NCBI GenBank assembly: GCA_965226205.1
Contig: CBDDCJ010000029.1
Span: forward strand, 20,667-84,666
Direction of reading: 5' to 3'
Source of the DNA: Opitutales bacterium
GTDB taxonomy: Bacteria > Verrucomicrobiota > Verrucomicrobiia > Opitutales > UBA2987
Length of the DNA stretch: 64,000 bases
The position numbers were made by a program, and so were the translations under genes. Below the pieces are notes generated by a model that saw only the letters and a list, made by a program, of their open reading frames with translations, had not been told where the DNA came from and searched no databases. Each line of letters starts with the position of its first letter. Position 1 is the first letter of the stretch. Shown one piece after another: positions 8,991 through 63,058 of this stretch.

Positions 8991-9004
8991 CGACTCTACT
9001 GAAT

Positions 9005-10345
9005 TCACGTTTGGGAAGGCATGAAACTTAGTAGGAGGCGCTCGACCGAAGCGTTTTTATTGAAGGTTAGGGTCCATCTTCCATTTGGTCGATTCAATCG
9101 GCCTGCTTTGAGCAGGAGGTTCCTTCGCAGGGTGTGCCAGTTTTCAAATTTCCACAGCGCGCTGCGCTTTTCGTTGGTGTGCCGGCGGGTGGCCGCGCGT
9201 TCCATTTGCAATTCCGGGTCAGGTTGTGAGCCAGCAGGTTGGCCAGTAAAAAGACTTTGTTGGCGTTCCACCGGCGGGCCGGAATGTAGTCCATCTGTCC
9301 GTGGTTTTTCAATTCCCCGAAGATGCTTTCCTGTGCTCCGCGCCCTTCATGAAAGCGCACCACTTTTCTGGTTATGCACTTCTTGTTCGTTACGATTGCC
9401 TTGAACTGATAGCCGCGTTGGCGAGGCTCGAATAAATCCAGTTGCAAGGGCCCCTTAATCTGTTCATTGACTTCGGCGCGGATAAACACAAAACGGTTTC
9501 TTCGGTCCCAGCTCTTCGGTTTCCACCGTTTCTCGAAATAGCCCAGCTCTTTTTCTGCGCTGCTCAGATACCACCACAGCCGTCTGTTTTCGATCAAATC
9601 CTTCAGGGCCACTAACCGCGCAAAGGGAACCGATATGGTGTATTCGAGCTTTAGCGATTCCAGCGTTTGCACCATCTCATCGCTGAAGAAGGCACTGTCC
9701 ATGCGGGTTTCCACCTTCGCTGAGGGCAAGACCTCCCGCACCATTTGCACACACCGGCGCATAAACTCGATGGCTCCATGGGAGTCGTGCACGTTGCCAC
9801 TGCGATGCAAAACCGCTAAGACTTGTCCGGTTTGCCCCACGGTGCAAAAGAGCGGGTAGTAACTGCGCTGCCCTTTCTTTTTGCGGTTGAATCCAACGGC
9901 CGTCCCTTCGGCCCGCCGGCGGGCGCTCAGCACACTGCCGTCAAAGTCCAGCGTAATGCGCGCCAAACCCTCCTGTGCAAGCCGCTGCAACACTAACTGG
10001 GCATTGATTTTTTCCAGCCCCAGCAGGCTGCGCCCGTCGAATTGCTCCAACATCCGGCTTATCGTCGGCACGCTGGGCAACCGCTTCATTCCGGCCATCT
10101 GTCGCACCAGCGGATCCTCCTTATAGAAATCGATGTCGCGCAAGGGCCGAAACCCAAGCACAATGTGGATGACCAACAGTTGCACTATCCGGCCAAAGCG
10201 GTAATGGCTGCCGACTTGCAGGTGACGGCAGCAACAGTCCAGTTTTTGCGCTAATTGCAATCTCTCCAATAACGGTTTGAAAATGACCAATCCGCCATAA
10301 GAGGTCATTTGCTCCTTGGCGAATTTGATCTGAGGCAGACATCAT
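9005..10345 (-). mobile_element. IS1380-family element, transposase frameshifted near C-terminus; ends not defined
   Basis: ORF 9094..10308 has ..KEQMTSYGGLVIF.., NRKKKGQRSYYPLF and FHEGRGAQESIFGELK. The expected C-terminus (LTRELQMERAATRRHTNEKRSALW...AGRLNRPNGRWTLT) is in another frame (9005..9271). The upstream ATG at about 10343 is also out of frame. I could not find convincing terminal IRs. Confidence 0.7.
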
Positions 10346-18436: not shown

Positions 18437-20410
18437 ACACTACCAATTTTATTAAGGATTCCCCAATGAAAATTCTCGGATCTAACGCTTTGGATTTCCT
18501 TCAACTCGGCAGTAATAATTGGGTTGCCGGTTCGCAAAAGTCACCCGGTGGCAAGCCCATTATGGTTAATGACCCGCACTTTGACACCAAAATGCTGCCC
18601 ACGCCGATCTATTCTATAGGAATGTTCACCCCTGAATTAAGATCTGTTGGCGTGAATGTGCCTGGTATTCCGGGTTTATTGGTGGGCAGAAATGAATATG
18701 TCGCAGCCGGGGTAACCGTTGCTTATGGTGATGCCCAGGATTTGTATATTGAAACAATCGATCCGAATAATCCGGCTAACTATCTGGAGGGCAAAAAGTC
18801 GATTCCATTTGAAGTGATTGAACAAACCCTGAAAATCAAGGATGAAGATGATCCAAGTGGTTTCAGAACGGAAAAATTAACTATTCGCCTGACGAAACGA
18901 GGCCCCGTGATTTCGAATGTTCTGAAGGATTTTAAAACGGAAAAACTGGTCACTGTTCGCTATGCTCCCGTGGAAAGCATGCAACCTTCCCTGGGTCTGG
19001 ATTTTCTTTTGAAATCTAAATCGGTCGGAGACATAAAAAATTATTTGAAAGATATCACTACAGTATATTTGAATTTTGTTTTTGCTGATGTTCATGGTGG
19101 TATAGCTTGGCAGACTAGCGGAAGAATTCCTATTCGATCTAAAGGAAATGGTTCAGTTCCCTTTAAAGTAACAGATGATCAGGACAACTGGGCGGGCTGG
19201 ATTCCCTATGAGGAAATGCCTCAAAACTACCAACCAGATAGAGGATGGGTTGGTACCGCTAATCATAAAACGGTAACCAAAGATTACCCTTACTACTACT
19301 CTTCCCAGTTTTCCCCAAGTTATCGCTATCAACGTATGACCGAGTTACTGGACTCTCCAGGGAAAAAGACTGTGGACGATCATTGGAATTTCATGCGGGA
19401 CGATCTGAATGTTTTATCCAGAGCGATATCTCCCATTCTGGCCAAAGCTTTAATTGCCCAACCTGAGACTCGTAAAATGGGAGAAATATTAAACCAATGG
19501 GATTTTAGAGATAAAATTGATTCTCCCGCGCCAAGTATATTTCAGGAAACCTATCGAAACCTGGCCGGACTGGTTTTTAAAGATGAACTGGGAGAAGAGC
19601 TCGGTTCTTATTTGATCGGCAATAACTAGAGGCTGTCCCAAAGTTATAACCATTTGTTTTACAGTGAGTTAACTTGTTTATAAAGCTGTTATAAAGACCG
19701 TTTTTAGAGGATTTTGGGCAATTTCGATGTCTATAACACCGTCAGCCTTTCTCTTGTTTTGCATATTCAAATACAATTCTACCATAGACCTCTGTCTGAC
19801 GCGATTATATTTATAACGAAAAGAGGCCTTATACAGCGTTTTTGACGGAATTGAATGACTTACGTTCCCATACAGTTCGGAGTCGAATATTTCAATTCGC
19901 AAAATTCGGGTTTTTGGGACAGCCTCTAACTACTTCTGGCAGGAAAGACTGGGAATAATGATCAATGAGGGTGAATCCGAATGGTTTGACGATGTTAGCA
20001 CTAAGGATAAGATAGAAACCCTGACAGACCTGATACAAAAAGCTGGAATGAAAACGCGCGAGGATCTAATGGAGAGGATTGGTGATGATCCGGAAGACTG
20101 GCTTTGGGGGAAAATCCATCAAATAGAATTTCTTAACCCTATTCGAAGAAGCGGATTGGGAAAAGGCTGGTTAAGGGGAGGCTCTCATCCTATGGCAGGT
20201 TCAGGAGACACGATTTACCGCGCGCGTTTTTCTTTAAATCAAGAAGGCAACTTCGTAAAGGTTTCCGCTGCTCTCAGGATGGTGGCTGACCTGAACGATA
20301 ATGAAAAAGTGTTGGCGGTAATATCAGGTGGCGTCGTCGGGCGAACGTTCTCTCCTCACTTCACCGATCAAATCGAGGCCTATATGAGTGGAGAAAAAAT
20401 GTATTGGTGA
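18437..20410 (+). pseudogene. Penicillin/AHL acylase family (Ntn hydrolase), alpha-subunit region lost, split by a MITE
   Basis: The reading frame starts just before the beta-subunit nucleophile motif GSNNWVAG. ORFs 18466..19629 and 19958..20410 rejoin in frame as ..YLIGNNYFWQERLGIMINEGESEW.. when MITE A2 and one AACT are removed. Confidence 0.8.
19628..19927. mobile_element. 300-bp MITE, copy A2, TSD AACT
   Basis: It has the same termini as A1. By eye there are about 5 substitutions relative to A1. AACT is at 19624-19627 and 19928-19931. Confidence 0.9.
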
Positions 20411-47283: not shown

Positions 47284-48789
47284 TTATGTTCCTAGGTGGT
47301 TTACATCGTCCAGTGGAAAAATAGGATGATGTATTTTCTTGAAAGGCAATCGCTTGATATTTCGATCCGTAGAGCCCCCGGTGTCAACCGTAACGACCGA
47401 TTTGACGATACCTGTATAGCCAGCCCGGAACAGTTTATGGGATTTTTGCACAATCAAGTCCATCGATTCCGGTTCCAGGCCCATGCTCCTCCAGAATTCA
47501 GGATCATGCATCATCGAAGTGAATTCAATCGCCATGAGGAAAATATTATCTCCAATCCGAAGAAGAGCGCGCCTCCCGATATCCAGTTTCATCCCGCCAA
47601 AAGAGGTTCCTTTAATGGTAAAAGGCCGGTCGTTTAAACGCATTACGGTGGCTCTAAGCGGCACTTTCAGGTTATAGGCCTCCTTGTCATCGGAACCGCC
47701 AACCGAACTATCGATTATTTGCCCCTCCCCGGCTTTCCAGGCTTTTTCCAATGTTGCCGGATCGACGATGGGAATGGCCGCGGCCGCAAACCGGCCCCCT
47801 GCCGCCGGCATTGAGAGGAGGCTCCGCAGCAAAACCGTGCTGTCCCCCATTGCGCCCGCCGTGGTGATATCCCCGGAATCGACAATGGCAATGGGTTTTT
47901 CGTATTCGGCCATATTTCGGATGAATTCCTCAATGTCCGGGTAATTCTGCAAAAACTCGCGGCGTCGATTCCAGATCTCGCCGGCAAGTTCCGAAAATTG
48001 CCTCTCCATTTCCTTTTGACCGGCATTTTCGACATAGGCGAGCAAGGCAATTCCATGCCCTTTAAGATCTACCCAGGGATGTGTGCAAAAAGCCGAAGCG
48101 CTGAATACTTGAGGGCGCATTTCCAAGTCCTTCACCCTCTCCATGACATCAAACATGGGGCCGTTCAGGGTCTCTGTGTTGTCCACCGGCAAAATCATGG
48201 GCGCCCGCCTGAAAACTATCTCGAATCGAGGTTTTTCCGCCGTCAGCCTGAGCAAAGCCTCTGTCGCGCGACGTCCGGTATCGCCCATGTCAATGTGTGG
48301 ATAGGTCCGATAACCGACAAGCAGGTCGGCATTTTTCAGCATCCGCTCCGTCACAACGGCGTGAAAATCCAGGGAGCAGACGATGGGCGCGGATTTACCC
48401 ACAATTTTCCGGACCATTTCCAGAATGAGGCCCTCACCGTCATCCAGATGCTCCGCCACGAGGGAACCGTGCAATGAAAGGAAAACACCGTCCACCGGCC
48501 AAGATTTTTTCAGCGGCTCAATGATCATCGCCTCCAGTTGGGCAAAAGTATCCTTTAAAACAGGGCCGTAAGCGACCGCCCAAGCCGCCATTCCCGGTAT
48601 GATTTCGATTGGTTCGGGATGGTTTTCTAGGGCCTCGAAAAAACCGCCGATCTCGGTATTGGTTCCGTATAACTGTTCCCGGATGGCATCACCCTGCAAA
48701 AGATAGCCGCGTTGAAAGCATCCCAGGTCCGACATAGCAGGGCAAAAACTGTTCGTTTTCTGAAAGAAGCCTGAGAAAAAAATTTTCAT
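47284..48789 (-). CDS. M81-family metallopeptidase (MlrC-like)
   Basis: 501 aa. N-terminus MKIFFSGFFQKTNSFCP, with a length and layout typical of MlrC/DUF1485 proteins. Confidence 0.7.
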   Translation of the reverse strand: MKIFFSGFFQKTNSFCPAMSDLGCFQRGYLLQGDAIREQLYGTNTEIGGFFEALENHPEPIEIIPGMAAWAVAYGPVLKDTFAQLEAMIIEPLKKSWPVDGVFLSLHGSLVAEHLDDGEGLILEMVRKIVGKSAPIVCSLDFHAVVTERMLKNADLLVGYRTYPHIDMGDTGRRATEALLRLTAEKPRFEIVFRRAPMILPVDNTETLNGPMFDVMERVKDLEMRPQVFSASAFCTHPWVDLKGHGIALLAYVENAGQKEMERQFSELAGEIWNRRREFLQNYPDIEEFIRNMAEYEKPIAIVDSGDITTAGAMGDSTVLLRSLLSMPAAGGRFAAAAIPIVDPATLEKAWKAGEGQIIDSSVGGSDDKEAYNLKVPLRATVMRLNDRPFTIKGTSFGGMKLDIGRRALLRIGDNIFLMAIEFTSMMHDPEFWRSMGLEPESMDLIVQKSHKLFRAGYTGIVKSVVTVDTGGSTDRNIKRLPFKKIHHPIFPLDDVNHLGT

Positions 48790-48825
48790 TTTCGATTAAG
48801 GATGCAAGGTCATGCCATTATACTT

Positions 48826-49125
48826 AGAGGCTGTCCCAAAAACCCGAATTTTGCGAATTGAGATATTCGACTCCGAACTGTAAGGGAACGTAAGTCATTC
48901 AATTCCGTCAAAAACGCTGTATAAGGCCTCTTTTCGTTATAAATATAATCGCGTCAGACAGAGGTCTATGATAGAATTGTATTTGAATATGCAAAACAAG
49001 AGAAAGGCTGACAGTGTTATAGACATCGAAATTGCCCAAAATCCCCCAAAAACGGTCTTTATGACAGCTTTATAAACAAGTTAACTTACTGTAAAACAAA
49101 TGGTTATAACTTTGGGACAGCCTCT
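48826..49125. mobile_element. 300-bp MITE, copy A3 (inverted relative to A1), TSD ACTT
   Basis: ACTT at 48822-48825 and 49126-49129. The site is intergenic. Confidence 0.9.
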
Positions 49126-49222
49126 ACTTAATCATTCCGAATCCACCCAAAACACATACAATTTTGACCGTCCCGCAAGTTCACGAGGTCCCATAAACGA
49201 TTACAAATCAGCAGATTATAAA

Positions 49223-49297
49223 TGGAGGCGCGGGTCGGAATCGAACCGACGTGTAGAGGATTTGCAGTCCCCGGCCTTACCACTTGGCTACCGCGCC
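49223..49297 (-). tRNA. tRNA-Cys (anticodon GCA), U73 and CCA encoded
   Basis: The reverse complement folds as follows: acceptor GGCGCGG/CCGCGCC, anticodon stem GGGGA/TCCTC with loop CTGCAAA, T arm GTCGG-TTCGATT-CCGAC, then TCCA. Confidence 0.9.
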
Positions 49298-49472
49298 GAA
49301 TCAATGGGCTGAATATCATATAAGCCGCATCTGAAAACAAGTTTCAAGTTGTTTTTCTTTTTATTAGTCTGATTTGCTTGGAGAACCTTTCAATTCTAAA
49401 AAGCTTTGATTTTTTACCTTGAAAATCGGCTAGACTCCGATTGCCACCTTCCGGCATACTTTGCCGCCTTTT

Positions 49473-50252
49473 ATGCCTGCTACCATTTTAACCATTGCCA
49501 ATCAAAAGGGAGGCGTCGGCAAGACGGCCACCGCTATCAACCTGGGGGCCGCTCTGGCCGCTAAAGGCGTCCGCACACTGTTGCTCGACATGGACCCGCA
49601 GGCCAATGCCACGAGTGGGCTCGGTCTGCAGAAATCAACCGGAGGGAGCATTTACGGCCCGCTCCACGGCGATGGTCTTGCGGTCGAAAAAATTATCCCT
49701 ACGGGCATCGAGAATTTTTCCATCATCCCGTCGGAAGTTGACTTGGCGGCGGTGGAAATCGAGCTGGCGCAAAAGCAGGACTACCTTATACAGTTGCGCA
49801 ACTGCCTGCAACCGCTGCGAAACTCGGTGGATTTCGGAGTCATTTTAATCGACTGTCCGCCAGCCCTCGGTTTGCTCTCCATGAACAGCCTGGCGGCGGG
49901 AGATTACTTGCTGATCGCCTTGCAATGCGAATACTTGGCCATGGAGGGTCTGGGCCAGATATTGGCTGTGGTCGAGCAGTTGAGGGAGGCCGGGGCCAGC
50001 CCCGGCTTGCAACTGGGGGGGATTGTCATGACTATGTTCGATGTGCGCACCAATTTGAGCCGGCAGGTTGTGGACGAAGTTCGGGGGCATTTTGGAGACG
50101 TTGTTTTCAATCCCGTGATTCCCAGAACCATTCGATTGGGGGAAGCTCCCAGCTTTGGGAAGACGATTTTTCAATATGACCATCTCAACCCGGCTGCCAG
50201 CGCTTATAGAAACCTGGCCGGGGAAGTCCGGGCGCGTTTCGATTTGAAATGA
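49473..50252 (+). CDS. ParA/Soj-family ATPase (no adjacent parB)
   Basis: Deviant Walker A IANQKGGVGKTATA. The ATG at 49473 lies inside ORF 49461..50252. Confidence 0.85.
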   Translation: MPATILTIANQKGGVGKTATAINLGAALAAKGVRTLLLDMDPQANATSGLGLQKSTGGSIYGPLHGDGLAVEKIIPTGIENFSIIPSEVDLAAVEIELAQKQDYLIQLRNCLQPLRNSVDFGVILIDCPPALGLLSMNSLAAGDYLLIALQCEYLAMEGLGQILAVVEQLREAGASPGLQLGGIVMTMFDVRTNLSRQVVDEVRGHFGDVVFNPVIPRTIRLGEAPSFGKTIFQYDHLNPAASAYRNLAGEVRARFDLK

Positions 50253-50288: not shown

Positions 50289-50990
50289 ATGTCTGACCTG
50301 GATCAACTGCAAAAGTCCATCGGTTATCGCTTCCGGAACGTGGAGTTGCTGCGGCAAAGCCTGACCCATCCCTCTTATATACAGGTCAATCCACGGGCGG
50401 GCGAACATAATCAGCGGCTGGAGTTTTTGGGCGACACGGTGTTTTCCCTGACGCTGGCGGAAAAGCTTTACCATCTGCTTCCGGATGACAGGGAGGGCCC
50501 CCTCAGCCGCTGCCGGTCCAGTTTGGTCAAAGGAGAGAAACTAACCAGTCTGGCCCTCAACCTGGGCCTGCACAAGCACCTGCGAATGAGCGATGGAGAG
50601 GAGCAAAATGGGGGGCGGCAGCGGCCTTCAATCCTAGAGGATGCCCTCGAAGCTCTCGCTGGGGCGATTTTTTTGGACAGCGGCCAAGAGACTGTCAAAC
50701 GGGTCATCCTATCCTGGTATGACGGCATCGAACCGCATCTGGAAAACCTGCTCGAAACCTATAACCCCAAAGGACAGTTGCAGGAGGCGGTGCAGCCCGC
50801 CCTCGGCAACAAGGCCCTGAAATACCGCGTGACCGAAGAGACCGGGCCCGGCCATAAAAAATATTTCAAGGTGATCGTCCTCGTGGGCGGCAAAAAAATG
50901 GGCGAAGGCGAAGGGACATCTAAAAAAGAGGCCGAGGAAAGGGCCGCCGTGATCGCCTTGCGAAAGTGGAAGCAATCCACCTCTCAATGA
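50289..50990 (+). CDS. rnc: Ribonuclease III
   Basis: 233 aa with the NQRLEFLGDTV signature and a C-terminal dsRBD (GPGHKKYFKV..GEGEGTSKKEAEERAA). Confidence 0.92.
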   Translation: MSDLDQLQKSIGYRFRNVELLRQSLTHPSYIQVNPRAGEHNQRLEFLGDTVFSLTLAEKLYHLLPDDREGPLSRCRSSLVKGEKLTSLALNLGLHKHLRMSDGEEQNGGRQRPSILEDALEALAGAIFLDSGQETVKRVILSWYDGIEPHLENLLETYNPKGQLQEAVQPALGNKALKYRVTEETGPGHKKYFKVIVLVGGKKMGEGEGTSKKEAEERAAVIALRKWKQSTSQ

Positions 50991-53900
50991 GGGCAAGTCC
51001 GATCAAAAACTCCCTTCAGGCGGAGTTGATGCCGGGGGTTGTGGAGGCCGCCGTCCCAGCCATTTGTTCGCTCTTGATAAAACAAAAACTGGGGCCGGTC
51101 ACATTTATTTTGGCCAAAAACCAGAGCCAGTGCGAACATTGGAGCGAAGACCTGATTTTTTTTGATCGAATTTCCAAAAATCAGATTAACATTGAGACGC
51201 ATCTGCTGCCCGATCTTAGCGGCTGGTCAAGGGATGATCCGCACTATTTTAACCAGGAATGCGACCGGCTGGCCACCCTGACCCGTCTGAATGACTACCG
51301 CCTGTTAAAGGAAGCGGAGCATCCGTTGGTCATTCTGGCCACTCCGCGCGGATTGTTTCAACCGTTCCCGCACCGGAAAACCCTCGCGGCGCTGGAAATC
51401 CGCCTGCGGCCGGGCCTAGATTATCCTTTTGGAATGCTGGTGGAGAACCTGGAATCGAGTCTGCGCTACGATTGCGAGGCACTCTGTGAAACCCCTGGGC
51501 AATATGCGGTGCGCGGAGGATTGGTCGATGTTTATCCCGTCAATGCCGATCAACCCTACCGGATTGATTTTTTTGGCGATGAAATCGAGGAAATGCGGGC
51601 TTTTGATCCGACCACCCAGCTCTCTCTGGAAAGTGTTACCGAGGTGGTTGTGGCAGCCTTGCCCAAAGGGGTGCAACAGGAAAGGGAAAATCATTTTTTC
51701 GATTATTTGGGGGACGCCGTCCACTGGATACTATGGGAGCCGGCAGTCCTGGCAGAAGCGTTTCCGGTCTATTTTCCCGAAACGCAGTTGGCCGGGCCGT
51801 CCATTTCGGGATTTCCTCAACTGCGGGAAAGGCGCGAGGTATTTCCGGATCGCTGGACTGGGTTGACGGAAATCGATGCGACGAACCCGCTATTCGGGCC
51901 CGATTGTCCACGCAAACCCTGTTTGACGGATCCTTTGAGCAGCTACCGGACATTTATTCCAGAGGCGGATTTCGGGCTGGGAAGAGTCGAGGCCGAGCAG
52001 GAAGCGCGTTTGCAATTTCTGAAACAGGCGCTTGATTGGCAGCAGGAGGGATTCAACATCCTTTACGCGGCGATAAACGATGGCCGGGAAAAGCGTTTTC
52101 GCTCCATCCTTGAATCGGAACCGGAATTGGCCGGGTTGAAACCGCGATTTGTTCGTGGTGAAATCAGCGAAGGATTCCTCCTTTTCTTTCCCGAAGCTCA
52201 CGACACATTCGCGCCCCAAAGCGAGAAGACACCCGCAGGCAAAGGCATCGTTTTTTTAAGCGACACGGAAATATTCGGACGTTTCCGCAAACGCCCTGTG
52301 GGGTTGCGGCGCAGGCGTCTACCCCACCGCGCCCAGGTCGATCAAATGCTGAATTTTTCCGAATTGGCGGAAGGCGATCTGTTGGTCCATCTGCAACACG
52401 GCATATGCCAGTATGGCGGCCTCACCCAGTTGAACATAGAAGAAAAAGACAGGGAGGTCATTTCGCTCGAATTTGAAGACGGGATAATCCTGCATGTGCC
52501 TTTGCACGAATCGCACCTGCTCACGCGATATGTCGGGTTGACCAAGGCACGGCCGAGATTGGGCCGGCTGGGGGGCGCAGCCTGGAACCGAACCCGCCGG
52601 GCAGCGGAAAAAGCGACCCTCGATTACGCGGCCGAAATGCTCCATTTGCAGGCCCGGCGCGAAACCATAAAAGGGCATGCATTTCCCCCCGACAGTCAAT
52701 GGCAGCAAGAGTTCGAGGAATCATTCCCATTTCAGGAAACACCCGACCAGGCCAGCGCAATCGCCGAAACCAAGGCCGATATGGAGTTGGAGCAAACCAC
52801 GGACAGGCTCATCTGCGGCGATGTCGGTTACGGGAAAACGGAAGTCGCTTTAAGGGCCGCCTTCAAATCCGTCATGGACGGCAAACAGGTGGCCGTGCTG
52901 GTCCCCACAACGGTCCTGGCGCAGCAGCATTGGAACACTTTTCTGGAAAGAATGGCGGCCTATCCTATCAACATTGAGATGCTCAGCCGTTTTCGCACCA
53001 AAAAGCAGCAGGTCAAAATCCTCGATCAGTTGCAAAGTGGCAAAGTGGACATCCTCATCGGCACGCACCGTTTATTGAGTGGTGATGTAAGGTTCAAAGA
53101 TCTGGGCATACTGATTGTGGATGAGGAGCATCGCTTCGGCGTTAAACACAAGGAAAAGCTGAAACAACTGCGGGAAGATGTGAATGTGTTTTCCATGAGC
53201 GCGACCCCCATTCCGCGCACCTTGTACCTGGCTCTCATGGGAGCGAGAAAAATGAGCTTGATTGAAACGCCGCCCGTGGACCGTTTACCCATCCACACGA
53301 TAGTAAAAAACTACGATCCGAAAATGGTCAAAGAAGCCATCGAGTTTGAAGTCTCCCGGGGCGGACAGGTATTTTATTTGCACAACCGGGTCCAGACCAT
53401 TGATTCGGTGGCCCTCCGGCTGCAGGAGATGTTTCCCAAAATGAATATTGCGGTGGGCCATGGGCAGATGGCGGAAACCTTACTGGAAAGAATAATGACC
53501 CGGTTCGTGGCGGGCGAATTCGATATCCTGGTCTGCACCACCATCATAGAATCGGGGTTGGATATTCCCAACTGCAATACTATCATAATCGAGGGAGCGG
53601 ACCGTTTCGGATTGTCCCAGCTATACCAGTTGCGGGGCCGGGTGGGCAGGAGCAAACGCCAGGCCTACGCCTACCTGCTCTTGCACCGGCATTCCCGCCT
53701 CGTCGAGCAGGCCCGCAAAAGACTCAGCGCCATGCGCCAATACAATCGGCTGGGGGCGGGCTTCAAGATCGCCATGCGGGACCTCGAACTGCGGGGGGCG
53801 GGGAACCTCCTGGGCACACGCCAAAGCGGCCATATTGCGGGAGTCGGCTTCGAGCTTTACTGCCAATTGTTAAAGCAGAGCATTGCGCGTCTGAAGGGTG

Positions 53901-54412
53901 GAAAGGGGGCCGCCAATATCCGGGCCGTGATCCGCCTCGATTTTGTCACCTTGGGTGGCGGTTTCAAAACGGAAAACGAAGAGACGCCCATCGGTTTCGC
54001 CGTCCTCAAGGAGGAGAAATTGGCCCGCGAACGGATTGGTTTGCAGGCCGCGGGCATACCCCGCCATTATATCGGCGAAACGCAGTTGCGGATCGATCTT
54101 CACCGCCAGATGGCCTTGGCTGATTCCGTGAAAGCCGTCCGCAAAATCCGGGCGGCGCTGAAAGATCGGTTCGGCCCCTACCCAGCCGAAGTGGAAGCTC
54201 TGCTCCTCGTCACCGAAATCAGGTGTCTGGCAGAAGCCAAAAACATTGTCCAGGTATCGAGCGAGGGAAATCGGCTCAAATGCTTGAAAGCCAGCGGCCT
54301 ATCCAACGATTACCTGAAACATGGCAATCGTTTTCCCCGACTGGCCCGGCGAACCCCGCTCCCCCGTCTGAAGGAAGTGCGCGATTTTCTAAAAAAAGTT
54401 AAAGCCGATTAA
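50987..54412 (+). CDS. mfd: Transcription-repair coupling factor
   Basis: About 1140 aa with the helicase motifs GDVGYGKTEVA and DEEHRFG, a TRG-type region and a UvrB-homology N-terminus. The ATG at 50987 overlaps the rnc stop (ATGA). Confidence 0.9.
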   Translation: MRASPIKNSLQAELMPGVVEAAVPAICSLLIKQKLGPVTFILAKNQSQCEHWSEDLIFFDRISKNQINIETHLLPDLSGWSRDDPHYFNQECDRLATLTRLNDYRLLKEAEHPLVILATPRGLFQPFPHRKTLAALEIRLRPGLDYPFGMLVENLESSLRYDCEALCETPGQYAVRGGLVDVYPVNADQPYRIDFFGDEIEEMRAFDPTTQLSLESVTEVVVAALPKGVQQERENHFFDYLGDAVHWILWEPAVLAEAFPVYFPETQLAGPSISGFPQLRERREVFPDRWTGLTEIDATNPLFGPDCPRKPCLTDPLSSYRTFIPEADFGLGRVEAEQEARLQFLKQALDWQQEGFNILYAAINDGREKRFRSILESEPELAGLKPRFVRGEISEGFLLFFPEAHDTFAPQSEKTPAGKGIVFLSDTEIFGRFRKRPVGLRRRRLPHRAQVDQMLNFSELAEGDLLVHLQHGICQYGGLTQLNIEEKDREVISLEFEDGIILHVPLHESHLLTRYVGLTKARPRLGRLGGAAWNRTRRAAEKATLDYAAEMLHLQARRETIKGHAFPPDSQWQQEFEESFPFQETPDQASAIAETKADMELEQTTDRLICGDVGYGKTEVALRAAFKSVMDGKQVAVLVPTTVLAQQHWNTFLERMAAYPINIEMLSRFRTKKQQVKILDQLQSGKVDILIGTHRLLSGDVRFKDLGILIVDEEHRFGVKHKEKLKQLREDVNVFSMSATPIPRTLYLALMGARKMSLIETPPVDRLPIHTIVKNYDPKMVKEAIEFEVSRGGQVFYLHNRVQTIDSVALRLQEMFPKMNIAVGHGQMAETLLERIMTRFVAGEFDILVCTTIIESGLDIPNCNTIIIEGADRFGLSQLYQLRGRVGRSKRQAYAYLLLHRHSRLVEQARKRLSAMRQYNRLGAGFKIAMRDLELRGAGNLLGTRQSGHIAGVGFELYCQLLKQSIARLKGGKGAANIRAVIRLDFVTLGGGFKTENEETPIGFAVLKEEKLARERIGLQAAGIPRHYIGETQLRIDLHRQMALADSVKAVRKIRAALKDRFGPYPAEVEALLLVTEIRCLAEAKNIVQVSSEGNRLKCLKASGLSNDYLKHGNRFPRLARRTPLPRLKEVRDFLKKVKAD

Positions 54413-54451
54413 ACCAAGAAAATGAGGTTGCATGATGCTCCCATTTTTTAA

Positions 54452-54480
54452 CCACAGATTACACGGATATACACAGATAA
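54452..54480. repeat. Single arm of the phased-heptamer repeat family
   Basis: CCACAGATTACACGGATATACACAGATAA, with three units at 10-bp spacing, just downstream of mfd. Confidence 0.55.
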
Positions 54481-54572
54481 TTTGTTCAATATTATCAGGG
54501 CTTGATAGGTTTTTTTTACCCGAGTTTAACTGCGAAAGTAGGGGTTTTATGAGATATTGGAATTTAATTTCA

Positions 54573-56685
54573 CCTTAACAGGCTGTTGAAAAAGACTGGC
54601 TTACTTAGTGGAAGAAACTAAAGTGTCAGGATGCGTGGTAAGATAAATAAACAAACGGATATGCTGGCCTTGATCAACCTGGAAGATCGCATCCCAGCGA
54701 AGCACCCGATCCGCCGCATTAAGGCGATGGTGGACGAAGTGCTCAGGGGGATGAGCGGTACCTTCGATGAGATGTATGAGTCACAGGGACGCGCCTCGAT
54801 ACCGCCGGAGCGTCTGCTCAAAGCGAAGGTACTGATGGCGCTCTATACGGTGCGCAGCGAACGGCAGTTGTGCGAACGGTTGCGCTACGACCTGCTCTTC
54901 CAGTGGTTTCTGCAGATGAACCCATGCGAGTCCGTTTTCGACCATTCGGTCTTCTCCAAAAACATGACTCGATTGCTCGAACACGGCACCTCTGAAATCT
55001 TCTTCGCCGAGGTCGTCGAGTTGGCGCGCCGACACGACTGGGTAAGCAACGAACACTTCAGCGTGGACGTCGATGAAAAGCTTTCGTCCGAAAGAAGAGA
55101 CTGAGGACGGCACCGATCAGCCCGAGGGCAACGGCTGGCAAGATTACAAAGGACAAAAACGCAGTAACCAAACACACGCCAGTCGCACCGACTCGGAGGC
55201 TCACCTGCTCAAAAAAGGCAAAGGCAAGGAAGCCAAACTGTGCTTCAACGCGCACGCGGTAATGGAAAACCGCAACGGACTGTGCGTGCTCATGGACGTG
55301 ACCGCCTCGGTCGGCAGAACCGAAGCGCAACAAGCCAGCGACCAACTGGACGAACTGTGCATGCGCGGATTCGAGCCACGCACTGTCGGAGCCGATGCCG
55401 GCTACCACACCAAAGCCTTTGTGCGGGAGTGCCGAGACCGTGAGATCGAACCTCACGTGGCCCCCCACGGCGGACGTAAAACACGGTAGTGTATAAAAAA
55501 AGAATGTTATTTTGTATTTTTAGCTGTACAGATAGCGTTAGGCAGTTTATTCTTAGTGCATGGTTACTAAAATTATTAATTGTCGGCACTGTGGAAGTGA
55601 AAATATCATTAAATTTGGCAAGACGCCCAACCATAAACAGCGCTACCGCTGCCATGATTGTGGTAAACAAAGCCGCGAAAACCCCACAGTGAAATACACC
55701 GAAGAGCAAAAAGAAATGATCCTTCGAGTCTATCAGGAACGCAGCAGTCTACGCGGTTTACAGCGCGCCTTCGGGGTGAGTCCCAACACCGTTTTGAGTT
55801 GGTTAAAAAAAACGACAATCGCTGCGACCGCTCAAAAGCACGATTCTTGCGGCCCGCCGCCATGATGTCATTGAACTGGACGAACTGTGGTCTTTTGTGG
55901 GACGCAAGAGCGATGCCCAATGGGTTTGGATCGCTCTTTGCCGACGCACCCGTCAAATCCTCTCCTATGCCATTGGGCCTCGGGATTGGTATCGTTGCCG
56001 GGAACTTTACGAGCGTCTGCCACGGGCCTACAAAAGATGTGCCACCTACAGCGACTTTTGGTCCACTTATGATGAAGTCTTTCCTCATAACCGATCCGTG
56101 GGAAAAGAAACCGGTGAAACGGCCCATGTGGAACGATGGAACAATACCCTGCGCCAACGACTGGGTCGTTTCACACGCAAAACCCTCTCCTTTTCCAAGC
56201 TTAAGAGTATGCATGAAACCTGTCTGAGACTTTTCATTCATCAATATAATCAAGAATTAGCCACCATTCCTACTTAATACACTACCTAAAACACCTGGTC
56301 TGGACGGCAGGCACCGCCGTGGCCAACGCTACCGTGCCAGCCAAAAAGTGCGCAAGCGGATCGAAGAAATCTTCGGCTGGGTAAAGACCACCGGAGGCTT
56401 CCGCAAAAGCCGCTACCGGGGCGTGGCCCGCACCCATCTGAGCGCCCACTTCGTCACCGCCGCATGCAACCTTGTGCGAATGGCCAAACTGGCCGAACAG
56501 CCACCACCCATGTTAGCCGGGGCCTAACGGCCCCAAGGCCCCGCTATGCCCCGAGGGGTAATACGGGGCCAGAAATCAACACCAAATCCTTAAAAACGCC
56601 TTATAATGAACCGCAAACATACCTTCTCGGGCCTGTCACGACCTGTCGATAGCTCAATAGTGCGTTTTTCAACAACCTGTTAAGG
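54573..56685 (+). mobile_element. IS5-family element (defective) carrying a nested IS1-family copy; TSD TTCA
   Basis: The IRs are CCTTAACAGGCTGTTGAAAAAG (54573..) and the reverse complement of GTTTTTCAACAACCTGTTAAGG (..56685), matching 20/22. TTCA is at 54569-54572 and 56686-56689. The transposase is in three pieces. Piece one is 54631..55104 (..LCERLRYDLLFQWF..HFSVD). Piece two is 55073..55489, reached after a roughly 22-nt deletion and frameshift (MKSFRPKE..). The C-terminus at 56287..56527 (..RKRIEEIFGWVKTTGGFRKSRYRG..) lies beyond the IS1 insertion. Confidence 0.85.
55485..56286 (+). mobile_element. IS1-family copy C1 (802 bp), nested in the IS5-family element, TSD TAAAACAC
   Basis: The ends are GGTAGTGTATAAAA and TTAATACACTACC. 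insA is at 55560..55865 (zinc finger CRHCGS..CHDCG plus HTH). The insB frame is from about 55810 to 56277 (DELWSFVGRKSDAQWVWIAL..SDFW..HVERWNNTLRQRLGRFTRKTLSFSK). There is an A8 run at 55805-55812. Confidence 0.9.
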
Positions 56686-56746
56686 TTCAAGCCCCCCCCA
56701 TTAGAACCCTTTCGGTTATAACGAAGTGAATCCAATTGCATCAGGA

Positions 56747-57548
56747 GGTAGTGTATAAAAAAAGAATGTTATTTTGTATTTTTAGCTGTACAAATAGCGT
56801 TAGGCAGTTTATTCTTAGTGCATGGTTACTAAAATTATTAATTGTCGGCACTGTGGAAGTGAAAATATCATTAAATTTGGCAAGACGCCCAACCATAAAC
56901 AGCGCTACCGCTGCCATGATTGTGGTAAACAAAGCCGCGAAAACCCCACAGTGAAATACACCGAAGAGCAAAAAGAAATGATCCTTCGAGTCTATCAGGA
57001 ACGCAGCAGTCTACGCGGTTTACAGCGCGCCTTCGGGGTGAGTCCCAACACCGTTTTGAGTTGGTTAAAAAAAACGACAATCGCTGCGACCGCTCAAAAG
57101 CACGATTCTTGCGGCCCGCCGCCATGATGTCATTGAACTGGACGAACTGTGGTCTTTTGTGGGACGCAAGAGCGATGCCCAATGGGTTTGGATCGCTCTT
57201 TGCCGACGCACCCGTCAAATCCTCTCCTATGCCATTGGGCCTCGGGATTGGTATCGTTGCCGGGAACTTTACGAGCGCCTGCCACGGGCCTACAAAAGAT
57301 GTGCCACCTACAGCGACTTTTGGTCCACTTATGATGAAGTCTTTCCTCATAACCGATCCGTGGGAAAAGAAACCGGTGAAACGGCCCATGTGGAACGATG
57401 GAACAATACCCTGCGCCAACGACTGGGTCGTTTCACACGCAAAACCCTCTCCTTTTCCAAGCTTAAGAGTATGCATGAAACCTGTCTGAGACTTTTCATT
57501 CATCAATATAATCAAGAATTAGCCACCATTCCTACTTAATACACTACC
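56747..57548 (+). mobile_element. IS1-family copy C2 (802 bp), TSD CATCAGGA
   Basis: The 8-bp repeat is at 56739-56746 and 57549-57556. insA is at 56822..57127 and insB at ..57539. It has an A8 run. Confidence 0.9.
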
Positions 57549-57887
57549 CATCAGGACTTGTTCAATGTTTTCAGGATTGACAAAATATATTCTGTGCTTT
57601 TCCCCATTTAATTTTTTCAATCGTGAAAATACTTTTTTTTCCTCTTTTGTATTAGGAGTTCTCATATCTGTTATTATAAAAACCGATCTGTTAGGATGTT
57701 TTTCTATTAACTGTTCCTGCTTTTTCCGCAATCTAGAAAGAAGGTATTTTGGAACTTTACCAACCGGCCTATTACCGATTTTTCGTTTATCGATAACTAT
57801 TAATATAAAATCAGCAGTCTCATTTATTGTAGCAAATTTCATTTGGGTTTCAGTCGAATCACGAACGCAAAACTCAATCTCATCGTC

Positions 57888-58689
57888 GGTAGTGTATTAA
57901 GTAGGAATGGTGGCTAATTCTTGATTATATTGATGAATGAAAAGTCTCAGACAGGTTTCATGCATACTCTTAAGCTTGGAAAAGGAGAGGGTTTTGCGTG
58001 TGAAACGACCCAGTCGTTGGCGCAGGGTATTGTTCCATCGTTCCACATGGGCCGTTTCACCGGTTTCTTTTCCCACGGATCGGTTATGAGGAAAGACTTC
58101 ATCATAAGTGGACCAAAAGTCGCTGTAGGTGGCACATCTTTTGTAGGCCCGTGGCAGGCGCTCGTAAAGTTCCCGACAACGATACCAATCCCGAGGCCCA
58201 ATGGCATAGGAGAGGATTTGACGGGTGCGTCGGCAAAGAGCGATCCAAACCCATTGGGCATCGCTCTTGCGCCCCACAAAAGACCACAGTTCGTCCAGTT
58301 CAATGACATCATGACGGCGGGCCGCAAGAATCGTGCTTTTGAGCGGTCGCAGCGATTGTCGTTTTTTTTAACCAACTCAAAACGGTGTTGGGACTCACCC
58401 CGAAGGCGCGCTGTAAACCGCGTAGACTGCTGCGTTCCTGATAGACTCGAAGGATCATTTCTTTTTGCTCTTCGGTGTATTTCACTGTGGGGTTTTCGCG
58501 GCTTTGTTTACCACAATCATGGCAGCGGTAGCGCTGTTTATGGTTGGGCGTCTTGCCAAATTTAATGATATTTTCACTTCCACAGTGCCGACAATTAATA
58601 ATTTTAGTAACCATGCACTAAGAATAAACTGCCTAACGCTATTTGTACAGCTAAAAATACAAAATAACATTCTTTTTTTATACACTACC
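57888..58689 (-). mobile_element. IS1-family copy C3 (802 bp, inverted), TSD TCATCGTC
   Basis: The 8-bp repeat is at 57880-57887 and 58690-58697. insA is at 58309..58614 (minus) and insB at 57897.. (minus). It has a T8 run on the plus strand. Confidence 0.9.
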
Positions 58690-59493
58690 TCATCGTCTTC
58701 TTTACCACTAACCACAAAATGCCAAGACATTATAGCGACGTTTGGTTTTCTTTGTTCACCTTTTAGGTATTAACCTATTCTATCTACGTTAATTATTGCG
58801 CCTGTTGTATGATCGGGCTGGCCTCCTATAAGCGTCGGTTTTGCGATTCCGTGAGCATCCATTTGCAGCCACTGGGCAACAAACAAGTTATTAGTGATTA
58901 TTTCTTGAGCATTTAATACTAGACGTGATTTAGGATATTGAAGACAGCGAAAGGTTGTAGAGCCGGCATCTACAAGAAGTTGAGGACGGGGGATTATATC
59001 CAAAATTAATTTTGAAATTCTTGCTGTTATATGAGCTAGCTCTTCATACCTGTTGTTCACAAGTCTTTCATACATACTTGCATATGAAAACCAATGAACG
59101 CCTGGAATTACGTTTATGATCTCTTCATTATTATCTGCCCATCCTAAACCTAGCCAAGGATAAGTTTTAATAAATTCATCTATTCTTTCGTGTATATCTT
59201 CGATTGTCAGATATTGCTTTAATTTCTCTAATTCATCTCGGTTCCCAAACCCCATATCTTTTAATGTCTGTATTAAATTCTCCATGTGGAATTTTATTAC
59301 CAAGAGATGTGTATCAATTACTAGGCGTTGACGTTCATCGCCATTGATCGCCTGCACCAATACACCCAATAGAAGAATTTCGACAATTTTTTTTCTACTT
59401 TTTTCTTGCTTGTTCATAGGAATAAAAGTAAGGCTAACTGAGAGCCCATAATATGGTGGTCCTTTGAGAAAAAGGTTTTACCTTCGAATTTTT

Positions 59494-60313
59494 GGTAGTG
59501 TATAAAAAAAGAATGTTATTTTGTATTTTTAGCTGTACAAATAGCGTTAGGCAGTTTATTCTTAGTGCATGGTTACTAAAATTATTAATTGTCGGCACTG
59601 TGGAAGTGAAAATATCATTAAATTTGGCAAGACGCCCAACCATAAACAGCGCTACCGCTGCCATGATTGTGGTAAACAAAGCCGCGAAAACCCCACAGTG
59701 AAATACACCGAAGAGCAAAAAGAAATGATCCTTCGAGTCTATCAGGAACGCAGCAGTCTACGCGGTTTACAGCGCGCCTTCGGGGTGAGTCCCAACACCG
59801 TTTTGAGTTGGTTAAAAAAACGACAATCGCTGCGACCGCTCAAAAGCACGATTCTTGCGGCCCGCCGCCATGATGTCATTGAACTGGACGAACTGTGGTC
59901 TTTTGTGGGACGCAAGAGCGATGCCCAATGGGTTTGGATCGCTCTTTGCCGACGCACCCGTCAAATCCTCTCCTATGCCATTGGGCCTCGGGATTGGTAT
60001 CGTTGCCGGGAACTTTACGAGCGTCTGCCACGGGCCTACAAAAGATGTGCCACCTACAGCGACTTTTGGTCCACTTATGATGAAGTCTTTCCTCATAACC
60101 GATCCGTGGGAAAAGAAACCGGTGAAACGGCCCGAAACCGGTGAAACGGCCCATGTGGAACGATGGAACAATACCCTGCGCCAACGACTGGGTCGTTTCA
60201 CACGCAAAACCCTCTCCTTTTCCAAGCTTAAGAGTATGCATGAAACCTGTCTGAGACTTTTCATTCATCAATATAATCAAGAATTAGCCACCATTCCTAC
60301 TTAATACACTACC
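59494..60313 (+). mobile_element. IS1-family copy C4 (820 bp): A7 run fuses insA-insB in frame, 19-bp tandem duplication then truncates it; TSD CGAATTTTT
   Basis: The 9-bp repeat is at 59485-59493 and 60314-60322. ORF 59569..60144 reads ..SWLKKRQSLRPLKSTILAARRHDVIELDELWSFVG.. without a shift. GAAACCGGTGAAACGGCCC is duplicated at 60115-60152, which creates a TGA. Confidence 0.9.
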
Positions 60314-60346
60314 CGAATTTTTAAAGATTGAACTGTTTTCTGCACG

Positions 60347-61006
60347 TCATACGTCGCAATCTGGTATAGAAAATGCCCGATCGAATGTTCGGCAGATAAG
60401 CTTGCCATTATGACCGGTATAGGACAAAGGCATTTCTTTTAAAATTCCGAAAGAATCCTGATACATTTCCTGGAATGAAACCAAGTAATCCTCCGGCGGT
60501 TGACTTGAAATCAGCTGGATACCACAATCTAATGTAATATAAGTTGCTGTAGCTTTAAGCCTAACTATAATTTCTTCATTCGTCGTCATCGTATTTATAG
60601 TACCGGTAGGCTCCAAGAAGTCCGAGAATGGTCTAACGTAAACTGGTTGTCCTTTGACGAAAACTGGACAGTTTCTAATCCGGGTTTTCTTTTTTTTTAG
60701 CACGTAAATCCATAGGCCTTTAACAGCAGGCGAAACGCTGGAGTTGGCGAAATTTTCAATGCATCCGATTATTTGATCTGGTAGTGAACGGATCCTCTCG
60801 GGTAAATACACAATCATGACTTGATCATGATACGAGATATTTTTTACCCGACCCGCTGACAGATTTTTGAAAAATTCGAAAACAAAACGACGTGACGTCT
60901 CCCCTCCATTCAAGCATTCGTCGACGGTATTCGTAAACCAATCCGCCCGTTCGGGACCGTCCTCAGATTTCGGGAGTGTAAAATATTCATTAATATCGTT
61001 AGCCAT
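60347..61006 (-). CDS. Hypothetical protein (219 aa), first gene of the AT-rich cassette
   Basis: Intact ORF MANDINEYFTLPKSEDGPERADWF... I recognise no motif. It is on the same strand as, and about 100 bp (IS removed) upstream of, the DeoRC-like gene. Confidence 0.55.
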   Translation of the reverse strand: MANDINEYFTLPKSEDGPERADWFTNTVDECLNGGETSRRFVFEFFKNLSAGRVKNISYHDQVMIVYLPERIRSLPDQIIGCIENFANSSVSPAVKGLWIYVLKKKKTRIRNCPVFVKGQPVYVRPFSDFLEPTGTINTMTTNEEIIVRLKATATYITLDCGIQLISSQPPEDYLVSFQEMYQDSFGILKEMPLSYTGHNGKLICRTFDRAFSIPDCDV

Positions 61007-61276
61007 GGACTTCCTTTCTAAAAATGCCGTTGATCACAACAAGAAATGGCATTAAAAAAAATTATTCAGCACTGATTTTTAAGAAAAAAATTCACTAAAT
61101 AAACACGAGTTTTAAAGACATATGCAAGGAAAAAGGAAAGTAAACCGTTTTTTTACATTTTGTGAGTGGTTTAACGTGAGATAAAGCTTTCCAAAGTAGA
61201 AAATAACAACGATGGAATCCAAAAGGGAAAGATGACATGAGGTTTTCAGGAGTCATTTCTTTGCAATAGATCTCCC

Positions 61277-61310
61277 CTAATCGGTATTGAAAACTAATCG
61301 GTATTGAAAA
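61277..61310. repeat. Perfect tandem 17-mer x2 (CTAATCGGTATTGAAAA)
   Basis: The units are at 61277-61293 and 61294-61310, about 270 bp upstream of the cassette start at 61006. Confidence 0.8.
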
Positions 61311-61510
61311 AAGAGCACCCCCGTACCACCAATAAGGACTAACAGGGTCATGCTTGAATCTTGAGGGAGTAAATGAAATCAAGAGGAGAGGTAAAGGGGT
61401 ACTTTCGTTGATTCAGATGGCATAAATGAAGTTGCAATAATGTATCTCACGGAGAGGGAATGCCGCCAAAAGGTTTAAAAGTGACAAAACTAATCTTTTC
61501 CGAATGATTC

Positions 61511-61686
61511 TGAATCCATGGATTACACCACAAACTCATCAGTCTAACCGCGAATGAACAACAATAAACGCGAATCATTTTTTGGAGGGTTTAGGATTAC
61601 GAAAAGATGTTAGGGCGTGTTAGTTCATTTTATGAATGAAGCTAATGCAGAAGGTATATTCGCGTTCATTGGTGTTCATTCGCGGT
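61511..61686. repeat. Palindromic element built from phased ATTCGCG-type heptamers
   Basis: ACCGCGAATGAACAACAATAAACGCGAATCA (61547-61577) faces ATTCGCGTTCATTGGTGTTCATTCGCGGT (61658-61686). There is also an AATCCATGGATT palindrome near 61513-61524. Confidence 0.65.
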
Positions 61687-62059
61687 AGTAAAATAGGGAG
61701 AAAATAGACGCTTTGTGTGATCAAGGAGATGAGAAACGCTGAGATATTTCGTAACTTCCTGATGGTCAAGGCAGGTTAATAAGAAATATTAAAATGAAAT
61801 TTTTTGAAAAAAAAGCTTGCGGCTTGAGAAGATTTGTGTTCTAATGTTCACTATTATGAGAAACCGATCTAAATCCCAATGTTTTGTAAAACCACAGATT
61901 TCGCGACTGCAGGCGGATGTAGCTAGGGCCATTGAGGCAAGGGCTGCTTGAATTTTTTCCATTTACGGCAACTTCTCGGGTAATCGAATGTCTGATTACC
62001 ACCTTGACCTCTTTACCTGCACTCCTATTAAGCTATAAGTTTAAAAAGAACTATTTAAG

Positions 62060-63058
62060 ATGCATTTCACAATAAACCGTTTTCTGATTCCGTGGGCATT
62101 GTCCACAGTGGCGTTTTTCACTCCGCTAGGCGCGCAAATCGTTCATAACATTTGGGAGCCTCCCTTGATACATGGCATCGCCGCAGTGGTTGAAGACCGT
62201 ATCATTACCTACGAGGAGATTCGCCGCCAAATGTCGCCCCTAATCGGGCGGATTCAGCAGGACTCCCGCAGCGCCGCTGAATTTCAGCGCAACATGGAGG
62301 AACTCTACCTCGAGGTTTTGCAGAGCCTTGTTGATAATATATTGGTCATCAAAGATTTTCAAAGCGAGGAAGAACGCGTCATCCCCCGTTCCTATGTTGA
62401 AAACGAATATGATCGCATTTTAATCGAGGATTTCGGCAACGACAGGCGCAAATTCCTGGAAAACCTGCGCAGCGAAGGCAAAAACCCGCGGGAATTTCGC
62501 AAGGAACTGGAAGAACAGATCATCGTCAGCGTGATGAATCAACAAATGCGCAAATCCCAGTCCGAAATCAGCCCGGAAAAAATTGAGGACTTTTACAACC
62601 AGAATAAAATCCATTTTTACCAGGAGGAAAGCGTTCATTTGCGCTTGATCATGCTTAAGCCTTTCGCCGACGAAAGCAGCGACCTGCTTCGACAAACGGC
62701 CGACAAAGTTATGGCGGAACTGGATTCAGAAGTGTCCTTCGCAAAAGTGGCGGAAAATTACAGCCAGGATTCCCGGCGCAAAAAAGGCGGCGATTGGGGT
62801 TGGATCAACCGCCCGGATTTGCGCGATGAATTAAGCGAAGTGGCCTTCTCGCTGAGTACGAAAACCTACAGCAAGCCGATTCCACTGGGCCAGCAATTTT
62901 ATATTTTGTATGTCGAAGACCGGCGCGATGAGGGAATCCAGCCCCTGGATGAAGTGCGCGACCGCATTGAAAACATTCTGGCTGGCAAGCTGGCCCGTCA
63001 GGCCCAAAAACGCTGGAAAGAACGTCTCCGCAAGAACGCTTTTGTCAAATATTACTGA
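62060..63058 (+). CDS. SurA/PpiD-like periplasmic chaperone with parvulin PPIase domain
   Basis: 332 aa with a signal-like N-terminus, a SurA-N-like region and a parvulin segment (HLRLIML...FAKVAENYSQDSRRKKGGDWGWI). Confidence 0.75.
   Translation: MHFTINRFLIPWALSTVAFFTPLGAQIVHNIWEPPLIHGIAAVVEDRIITYEEIRRQMSPLIGRIQQDSRSAAEFQRNMEELYLEVLQSLVDNILVIKDFQSEEERVIPRSYVENEYDRILIEDFGNDRRKFLENLRSEGKNPREFRKELEEQIIVSVMNQQMRKSQSEISPEKIEDFYNQNKIHFYQEESVHLRLIMLKPFADESSDLLRQTADKVMAELDSEVSFAKVAENYSQDSRRKKGGDWGWINRPDLRDELSEVAFSLSTKTYSKPIPLGQQFYILYVEDRRDEGIQPLDEVRDRIENILAGKLARQAQKRWKERLRKNAFVKYY

Follow-up and report, generated by a model that had tools for sequence, protein, structure and literature searches.

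We analyzed a 64,000-nt stretch of a marine Opitutales genome (hereafter the window), in which a segment of AT-rich DNA separates two housekeeping genes that are adjacent in seven related genomes. The left flank is the open reading frame (ORF) of mfd, the transcription-repair coupling factor (50966–54412, plus strand), and the right flank is a surA-like gene for a periplasmic peptidyl-prolyl isomerase (62060–63058, plus strand; Pfam domains Rotamase_2, Rotamase, and SurA_N_3). All coordinates are positions in the window unless a contig is named; comparison contigs and genomes carry L-numbers, and representatives of protein clusters carry P-numbers. The identical mfd of a sister strain, L002, contains the Pfam domains CarD_TRCF_RID, DEAD, Helicase_C, and TRCF. 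The inserted interval runs from the end of mfd to the promoter of the surA-like gene (54398–61994, limits taken from the alignment with L008) and holds two genes on the minus strand. Gene A (60347–61006) is an intact ORF of 219 amino acids without detectable relatives. Gene B (54547–59417), which is convergent with mfd, is a pseudogene of 381 codons once the insertion sequences (IS) within it are removed. Besides 3,028 bp of AT-rich island DNA, the interval contains 4.5 kb of IS, namely four copies of an IS1-family element (C1 to C4) and one IS5-family element that carries C1 inside it. Upstream of gene A lies approximately 1 kb of non-coding DNA (61007–61994).

An earlier note on this DNA had judged by eye that the interval is AT-rich, and had put its length without IS at about 3 kb. 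Computation bears out both statements. The length of 3,028 bp is that of the span 54413–61994 minus the IS elements and one copy of each target duplication, and its GC content (GC) is 0.374, as against 0.51–0.55 in the window as a whole (0.514) and in mfd (0.549), and 0.496 in the surA-like gene. All IS-free pieces of the interval fall between 0.34 and 0.39, and the span drawn in the earlier note measures 2,949 bp with a GC of 0.375 when its IS are deleted. Codon usage also sets both island genes apart from the host. GC at third codon positions (GC3) is 0.405 in gene A and 0.292 in gene B, compared with 0.632 ± 0.065 in host ORFs (n = 30), and an index resembling the codon adaptation index (CAI-like index) is 0.61 and 0.56, respectively, which is below the value of every host gene (0.73 ± 0.036, minimum 0.65; n = 30). 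Because these statistics deviate from those of the host ORFs, both genes are marked as foreign.

Gene B begins with an ATG at 59417 and ends with a stop codon at 54547–54549. Its four pieces (59417–58690, 57887–57549, 56746–56684, and 54578–54547) join into a single frame across the insertion sites of C3, C2, and the IS5-like element. The earlier note had reconstructed a protein of about 400 amino acids downward from 59417. A gene does start there, but its length is 381 codons, and codon 216 is an in-frame TAA (58770–58772), which the note left unmentioned. With this nonsense codon and the three IS, gene B carries four independent lesions and is thus non-functional in the window. C2 (56747–57548, plus strand; target site duplication, TSD, CATCAGGA) lies in the non-conserved C-terminal tail of the gene, and C3 (57888–58689, minus strand, inverted; TSD TCATCGTC) in the middle of its putative sensor domain. 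The IS5-like element (54579–56679; 1,291 bp in native form) has entered at a TTAA within the final codons and is interrupted by C1 (55485–56286, plus strand; TSD TAAAACAC). C4 (59494–60313, plus strand; TSD CGAATTTTT) occupies the spacer between the two genes, 77 bp upstream of the gene B ATG. With C4 and its duplication taken out, the end of gene A and the ATG of gene B downstream of it are exactly 100 bp apart on the same strand, in agreement with the spacing first estimated.

The order of these events is documented by L002, an 80-kb metagenome contig from the European Nucleotide Archive (ENA) that encodes the same proteins and has flanks ~99.9% identical to those of the window (~0.1% divergent). 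The island in L002 has C4 and C2 only, without C3, the IS5-like element, or the TAA, and gene B is an open frame of 362 amino acids (P0004) whose final residues are encoded by the IS1 end. Four single nucleotide polymorphisms (SNPs) distinguish the two islands. At 58772, CAA (Gln) in L002 is TAA in the window, the nonsense change in gene B; 58759 is a missense change in the same gene; 60347, the only SNP in gene A, gives TGG in L002 and the stop codon TGA in the window; and 61773 is non-coding. The comparison shows that C4, in the A–B spacer, and C2, in the variable tail of gene B, were inserted before the two strains split, and that the window lineage afterwards gained the nonsense codon, C3 in the putative sensor domain, and an IS5-like element in the final codons, inside which C1 lies. 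Together with the missense change, these additions give good support to the suggestion that the island is being dismantled.

The interval between mfd and the surA-like gene was compared across related genomes, as the earlier note had proposed. A scan of GTDB species representatives with the surA-like protein places the host in the Opitutales (Verrucomicrobiota), and the nearest surA-like proteins are those of L008 (92% identity), L009 (89%), L029 (86%), and L010 (84%). The site is empty in L008 and in six more distant Opitutales genomes (L011, Candidatus Moanabacter; L012; L014; L015; L016; and L019, Pelagicoccus), where ~20–220 bp separate the end of mfd from the surA-like gene. The alignment of L008 with the window breaks off after 54397 and resumes at 61995. 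Since the adjacency of the two flanking genes is widely conserved in relatives, the DNA bearing A and B is an insertion, and this part of the island has no match in any other species compared. Deviant composition and codon usage, combined with absence from the seven genomes in which mfd and the surA-like gene are adjacent, support the horizontal acquisition that had been proposed.

What gene B may once have done is suggested by its family, which is very rare. It comprises five clusters at 90% identity (P0004, P0007, P0008, P0009, and P0010) among 5.8 billion, none of them annotated, with a mutual identity of 30–35%. No relative of gene B was found among the GTDB species representatives, and a scan of metagenomes from the Joint Genome Institute (JGI) added one member; P0009 matches a member encoded on the JGI contig L037. 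The family alignment contains invariant or nearly invariant motifs (DAGSTTF, TNNLFVA, LIGG, SWH, DK.K, and ITD), and all of these but SWH sit at the signature positions of the DeoR-C domain, so that gene B keeps DxGS/TTT, TNx(L), (L)xGG, DxxK, and (I)TD. The Pfam model DeoRC matches three of four members, with a best E-value of 4.7e-5 and a score of 23.8 bits, under the gathering threshold of 31.8 bits. In hhalign comparisons with a profile of four E. coli K-12 DeoR-family repressors that combine HTH_DeoR with DeoRC (DeoR, SrlR, YgbI, and UlaR), the full-length family profile aligns with 83% probability (E = 9e-6), and its C-terminal part with 92% probability (E = 6e-7) over 126 columns. The likeness of the C-terminal half to the DeoR sensor, noticed on first reading, is therefore recovered at a remote level. 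Judged on sequence, the C-terminal two-thirds of gene B would be a remote but reproducible DeoR-C (ISOCOT-fold) sensor domain. The DeoR-C domains of characterized members (DeoR, GlpR, and UlaR) bind phosphorylated sugars, and the divergent domain of gene B may likewise sense a small molecule or phosphosugar.

The remainder of the protein departs from the DeoR family, as the earlier note also held for its N-terminus. In place of HTH_DeoR, which carries the helix-turn-helix (HTH) of these repressors, amino acids 1–135 of the gene B family form a conserved domain without detectable relatives, with the signature W.GL.W ... GV.WF..SMY; hhalign gives a probability of 2.4% against the DeoR HTH profile, and the N-termini of the five members have no Pfam match at E ≤ 10. 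An insertion of ~40 amino acids separates DK.K from ITD. No sugar-catabolic operon lies beside gene B or its homologues in the contexts examined, and neither in the window nor on L003 and L038 are its neighbors sugar or nucleoside catabolic genes of the kind that DeoR regulators control. Lacking HTH_DeoR, gene B does not belong to the DeoR family as that family is defined, and represents another architecture that re-uses the sensor domain. An AlphaFold2 model built on a three-sequence alignment reached a predicted local distance difference test score (pLDDT) of 50. A Foldseek search of this poor model against the PDB returned generic Rossmann-like matches only (E > 0.009), which we disregarded, and a sequence-profile search of the PDB with the gene B family gave nothing relevant.

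On our reading, whose probability we put at about 0.7, a single Opitutales lineage horizontally acquired a small islet that sits at the mfd 3′ end and is now in advanced decay. The islet came in as low-GC DNA. IS1 entered the promoter region in the A–B spacer (C4) and the gene B tail (C2); after the strain split, the window lineage received the nonsense mutation, the third IS1 (C3), and the IS5-like element, into which C1 then inserted. Such a pile-up at the islet would fit a genome undergoing an IS1 burst, the IS presumably accumulating there because the DNA is dispensable and AT-rich. The most likely original product of gene B would be a ligand-responsive regulator organized like the repressors of the DeoR family, with another N-terminal module for output or DNA binding. 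Since the two genes lie on the same strand 100 bp apart, gene A and gene B were probably transcribed together. In its low GC, atypical codons, and strain- or species-specific presence, the islet resembles the small acquired islets that turn into pseudogenes in host-restricted or IS-expanding bacteria, and its nested IS and its stepwise inactivation between near-identical strains are also those of decaying islets.

Some features differ from such islets and, with several properties of the two genes, speak against our reading. We found no integrase ORF or other mobility gene in the islet, no tRNA at it (the nearest tRNAs in the window are at 5418 and 49223), and no att-like or flanking direct repeats at the island boundaries, and the islet is only 3 kb long. 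Its right-hand 0.5–0.65 kb (61337/61487–62035) is common to three other species and not present in L008; the interval may be composite, or L008 may have lost this block. The DeoR-C assignment is a remote similarity below the Pfam gathering score, with a pLDDT-50 model that leaves the fold unconfirmed and a null Foldseek result. For gene B, whose putative regulatory role derives from domain homology, we found neither an operator or target operon nor a DNA-binding domain, and the data on gene A point to no function.

The search for att-like repeats at the island ends gave only a 16-nt match of 88% (D10). The same short repeat recurs at 5267–5310, and D10 is therefore not a boundary repeat. A 44-nt repeat, ATTTTTTAACCACAGATTACACGGATATACACAGATAATTTGTT, occurs just past the mfd stop codon (54443–54486) and, 89% identical, on the reverse strand at 5267–5310 near tRNA-Val; a related core, AACCACAGATT, is found at 61890.

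The islet is a clean case of gene gain followed by loss, in which strains 0.1% apart have caught the successive steps. The gene B family, which combines a DeoR-type effector-binding domain with a wholly different N-terminal module, would be a candidate for a new regulator architecture if it were characterized. The rarity of this family, with its unrecognized N-terminal domain, and an ORFan gene A that resists interpretation are the only real novelty of the locus. Beyond gene gain and loss and the gene B family, the locus does not evidently touch on any larger open question and is a fairly ordinary, well-documented case.

Nothing had been recognized in the 219-amino acid protein of gene A from the sequence, and wider searches gave the same result. 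It has no matches in Pfam, NCBIfam, PADLOC, or PHROGs, and none in the phage, plasmid, and IMG/VR collections; it retrieved only itself in a word-indexed search of 5.8 billion clusters and in an exhaustive phmmer (HMMER) scan of 1.84 billion representative proteins. With no homologue anywhere searched, gene A is by these comparisons a lineage-restricted ORFan. Its AlphaFold2 model, made from the single sequence, has a pLDDT of 42 and is uninformative. One could propose that gene A is not real, but either an ORF that arose by chance or what is left of a longer gene after decay, and that the islet is all junk DNA. The missing homologues and the low model confidence fit this proposal, as do the plainly decaying surroundings and the fact that the sole SNP between the strains removes or restores the gene A stop codon. 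However, a 219-codon open frame in DNA of 41% GC is, in our judgment rather than by calculation, unlikely to arise by chance; a Shine-Dalgarno-like motif containing AGGA, GAAAGGAAG, stands 3–9 nt before the ATG; and the GC3 of 0.405 is closer to that of gene B, a demonstrably genuine gene, than to that of the host. We regard the proposal as rather unlikely.

The right-hand end of the island raises a different alternative. A block corresponding to 61487–62035 is present upstream of the surA-like gene in L009 (827–1432), L029 (9096–9867), and L010 (471–836), with 77–87% identity, and L029 additionally shares 61337–61433. The A/B segment is thus younger than this end of the island, or the two are independent. 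Past the block the three species diverge in content: other small ORFs occur in L009, and in L029 fragments of IS3-family (rve_3) and IS66-family transposases stand just upstream of the block (8074–9245), with no mfd within 10 kb. The transposase fragments and the distant mfd in L029 indicate that, in more than one species, DNA upstream of the surA-like gene is a hotspot of rearrangement and insertion. One may then ask whether the whole interval is an old, variable, AT-rich hotspot, ancestral to several species, that has repeatedly gained and lost cargo and was deleted in L008. We find this distinctly unlikely, given that mfd lies directly beside the surA-like gene in seven genomes, including the closest species representative, and that the part carrying A and B is unmatched elsewhere. 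The C-terminal tails of mfd, compared with regard to an ancestral or a deleted state of L008, are highly variable. In any case, a hotspot would mainly redraw the right boundary of the acquired islet, and the acquisition of A and B stands.

The shared block amounts to a conserved non-coding segment of ~550 bp upstream of the surA-like gene in four Opitutales species, though not in L008, the closest. Its core (61770–61935) follows an extended −10-like element, TGTTCTAAT, and between 61935 and 61950 the window lacks ~88 nt that L009, L010, and L029 all hold. No ORF is conserved across the four species in any frame of the block. Rfam searches of the non-coding region yielded no match with E below 0.35 for the window, and in L009 and L010 returned only tRNAs elsewhere on the contigs and two sub-threshold matches, one of them near the surA-like start (L010, 826–971). 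Covariation is negligible in the consensus structure computed from three species with RNAalifold.

The block makes up the right half of the ~1 kb non-coding DNA upstream of gene A, in which the earlier note had described a perfect tandem 17-mer and arrays of palindromic heptamers. Both were located. The tandem 17-mer lies at 61277–61310, and the heptamers belong to an inverted repeat with 29-nt arms (61547–61575 and 61658–61686) that contains four copies of CGCGAAT. The resulting 140-nt hairpin (61547–61686) has a predicted folding free energy (dG) of −54.8 kcal/mol (z = −7.4) and holds four of the eight CGCGAAT heptamers of the window, spaced 20 bp apart on each arm. Its right arm has decayed in L009 without compensating changes, which makes a conserved RNA structure unlikely. 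The hairpin could instead be an array of protein-binding sites.

The earlier note had treated A and B as a two-gene cassette and proposed a search for co-occurring homologous pairs. Homologues of gene B (30–35% identity) occur in unrelated GC-rich genomes, and in three of the four other hosts their GC is lower than that of the flanks (L003, 0.58 versus 0.67; L038, 0.57 versus 0.64–0.68; L007, 0.54 versus 0.63), which fits a horizontally moving gene. On L003, the homologue is flanked by BipA on one side and by an S15 peptidase and a secretin on the other, with an unannotated ORF of 209 amino acids downstream. On L038–L045, the homologue (P0010) has an unannotated, divergent ORF of 191 amino acids upstream and lies beside a VapBC pair, a tyrosine integrase, and a Mutator-type transposase; this appears to be an integrated element (L038, 5567–12162, and likewise L039–L045) with a FitA-like/VapC pair. 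Downstream of the homologue on L038 is a disrupted sigma-54 activator, split into two overlapping ORFs, one of 990 amino acids (sensor/AAA+) and one of 126 (AAA-lid/HTH_8). The contigs L007 and L037 are too short for their neighbors to be judged.

A relationship between gene A and the ~200-amino acid neighbors of the homologues was sought by BLASTP, MAFFT, motif scan, jackknife hidden Markov models (HMMs), and hhalign, and the outcome is suggestive at best and not significant. Gene A and the neighbors have in common the motif LPx5-6[PA][EA]RA[DQ][WYA]Fx3V, which occurs once in each six-frame translation (window, L003, and L038). Pairwise, gene A and the 209-amino acid ORF of L003 align with E = 0.027; in a six-sequence search the motif alignments have E-values of 0.17 and ~0.9. 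An HMM built from the two neighbors places gene A at the top of 2,006 ORFs, but with E = 0.44, and both reciprocal jackknife tests fail. Among gene A and the neighbors, hhalign probabilities do not exceed 3%. By the refuting condition that the earlier note had set, a conserved cassette is therefore not supported: gene A has no homologues, the neighbors of ~200 amino acids are different proteins in different orientations, and an A-like plus B-like pair was not demonstrated in the L003 and L038 contexts.

It is tempting to see in these arrangements a genuine mobile two-component module, in which a sensor travels with a fast-evolving partner of ~200 amino acids for a new kind of defence, addiction, or signaling, the neighbors being diverged orthologues of gene A. 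An unannotated protein of 190–210 amino acids does adjoin each homologue with enough context, and the shared motif and the first rank of gene A point in the same direction. The motif pattern, however, was drawn from these very three sequences, no case repeats the gene order and orientation of another, and gene A is predicted to be mostly beta from residue 62 on (in a low-confidence model). With the weak HMM and hhalign values and the absence of PADLOC matches for members or neighbors, we consider such a module improbable. More broadly, that the gene B family and a hyper-variable, adjacent partner of ~200 amino acids with an N-terminal “ERAxxF” motif constitute an unrecognized two-gene system moving between the Planctomycetes-Verrucomicrobia-Chlamydiae (PVC) group and other environmental bacteria, of which the window holds the most AT-rich member in the course of being lost, seems very improbable.

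The searches for a specific role agree with the earlier statement that there was no evidence for one. Against PADLOC-DB 2.0, genes A and B, three homologues, and their neighbors have no matches at E ≤ 0.1–1. As cargo of phages or plasmids, neither A nor B was found by tblastn against 50,697 phage and 72,556 plasmid records, nor in IMG/VR scans or PHROGs, and no evidence of a toxin-antitoxin role emerged.

The inventory of IS in the earlier note, C1 to C4 and an IS5-like element with C1 inside, is confirmed in its members, and only the limits of the IS5-like element, given as 54572–56686, had to be corrected to 54579–56679. The new limits come from the comparison with L002 and are slightly narrower than the inverted-repeat call; the TTAA duplication is deduced from the empty palindromic target, ACCTTAAGGT, in that strain. 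The element contains a DUF772 transposase domain (E = 3e-20), and its assignment to the IS5 family is based on this domain, the inverted repeats (I9), and TTAA, the DDE part being interrupted by C1.

The four IS1 copies, the only ones in the window, are all at the mfd–surA locus. They are 802–820 bp long, with an intact target duplication of 8–9 bp around each, which indicates simple insertions without subsequent recombination between IS. The element has the marks of the IS1 family (InsA/InsAB′): a length of 802 bp, imperfect terminal inverted repeats of 22 bp, the zinc ribbon Zn_ribbon_InsA, the DDE domain DDE_Tnp_IS1, and a frameshift at a slippery run of eight adenines (A8) between the two frames. 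It differs from the IS1 of E. coli in belonging to a verrucomicrobial lineage and in having no nucleotide match in E. coli genomes; an E. coli or Shigella origin, which the name IS1 suggested, was rejected, as megablast matched the region to none of 5,426 E. coli genomes. C4 carries A7 where C1–C3 carry A8, and its InsA and InsB frames are consequently fused into a single transposase of 238 amino acids. The fused transposase is intact in L002 (9124–9924), and in the window alone a 19-bp tandem duplication in C4 (60115–60152) cuts it short again.

The same IS1 occurs in L008 (1027–1831, 2568–3368, and 15285–16087), 98.9–99.5% identical to the window copies, whereas the alignable flanks of the window and L008 have only 86–94% nucleotide identity (~92% protein identity). 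An IS1 identity so far above that of the flanks points to a recent burst or to spread of the element across species.

Two other patches of low GC are seen in the window. One (18466–19629) is an ORF of 387 amino acids with a GC of 0.43 and a GC3 of 0.40, and the other, ~1 kb at 48500–49500 with 39–44% GC, adjoins tRNA-Cys (49223–49297). Both could be further acquired segments.

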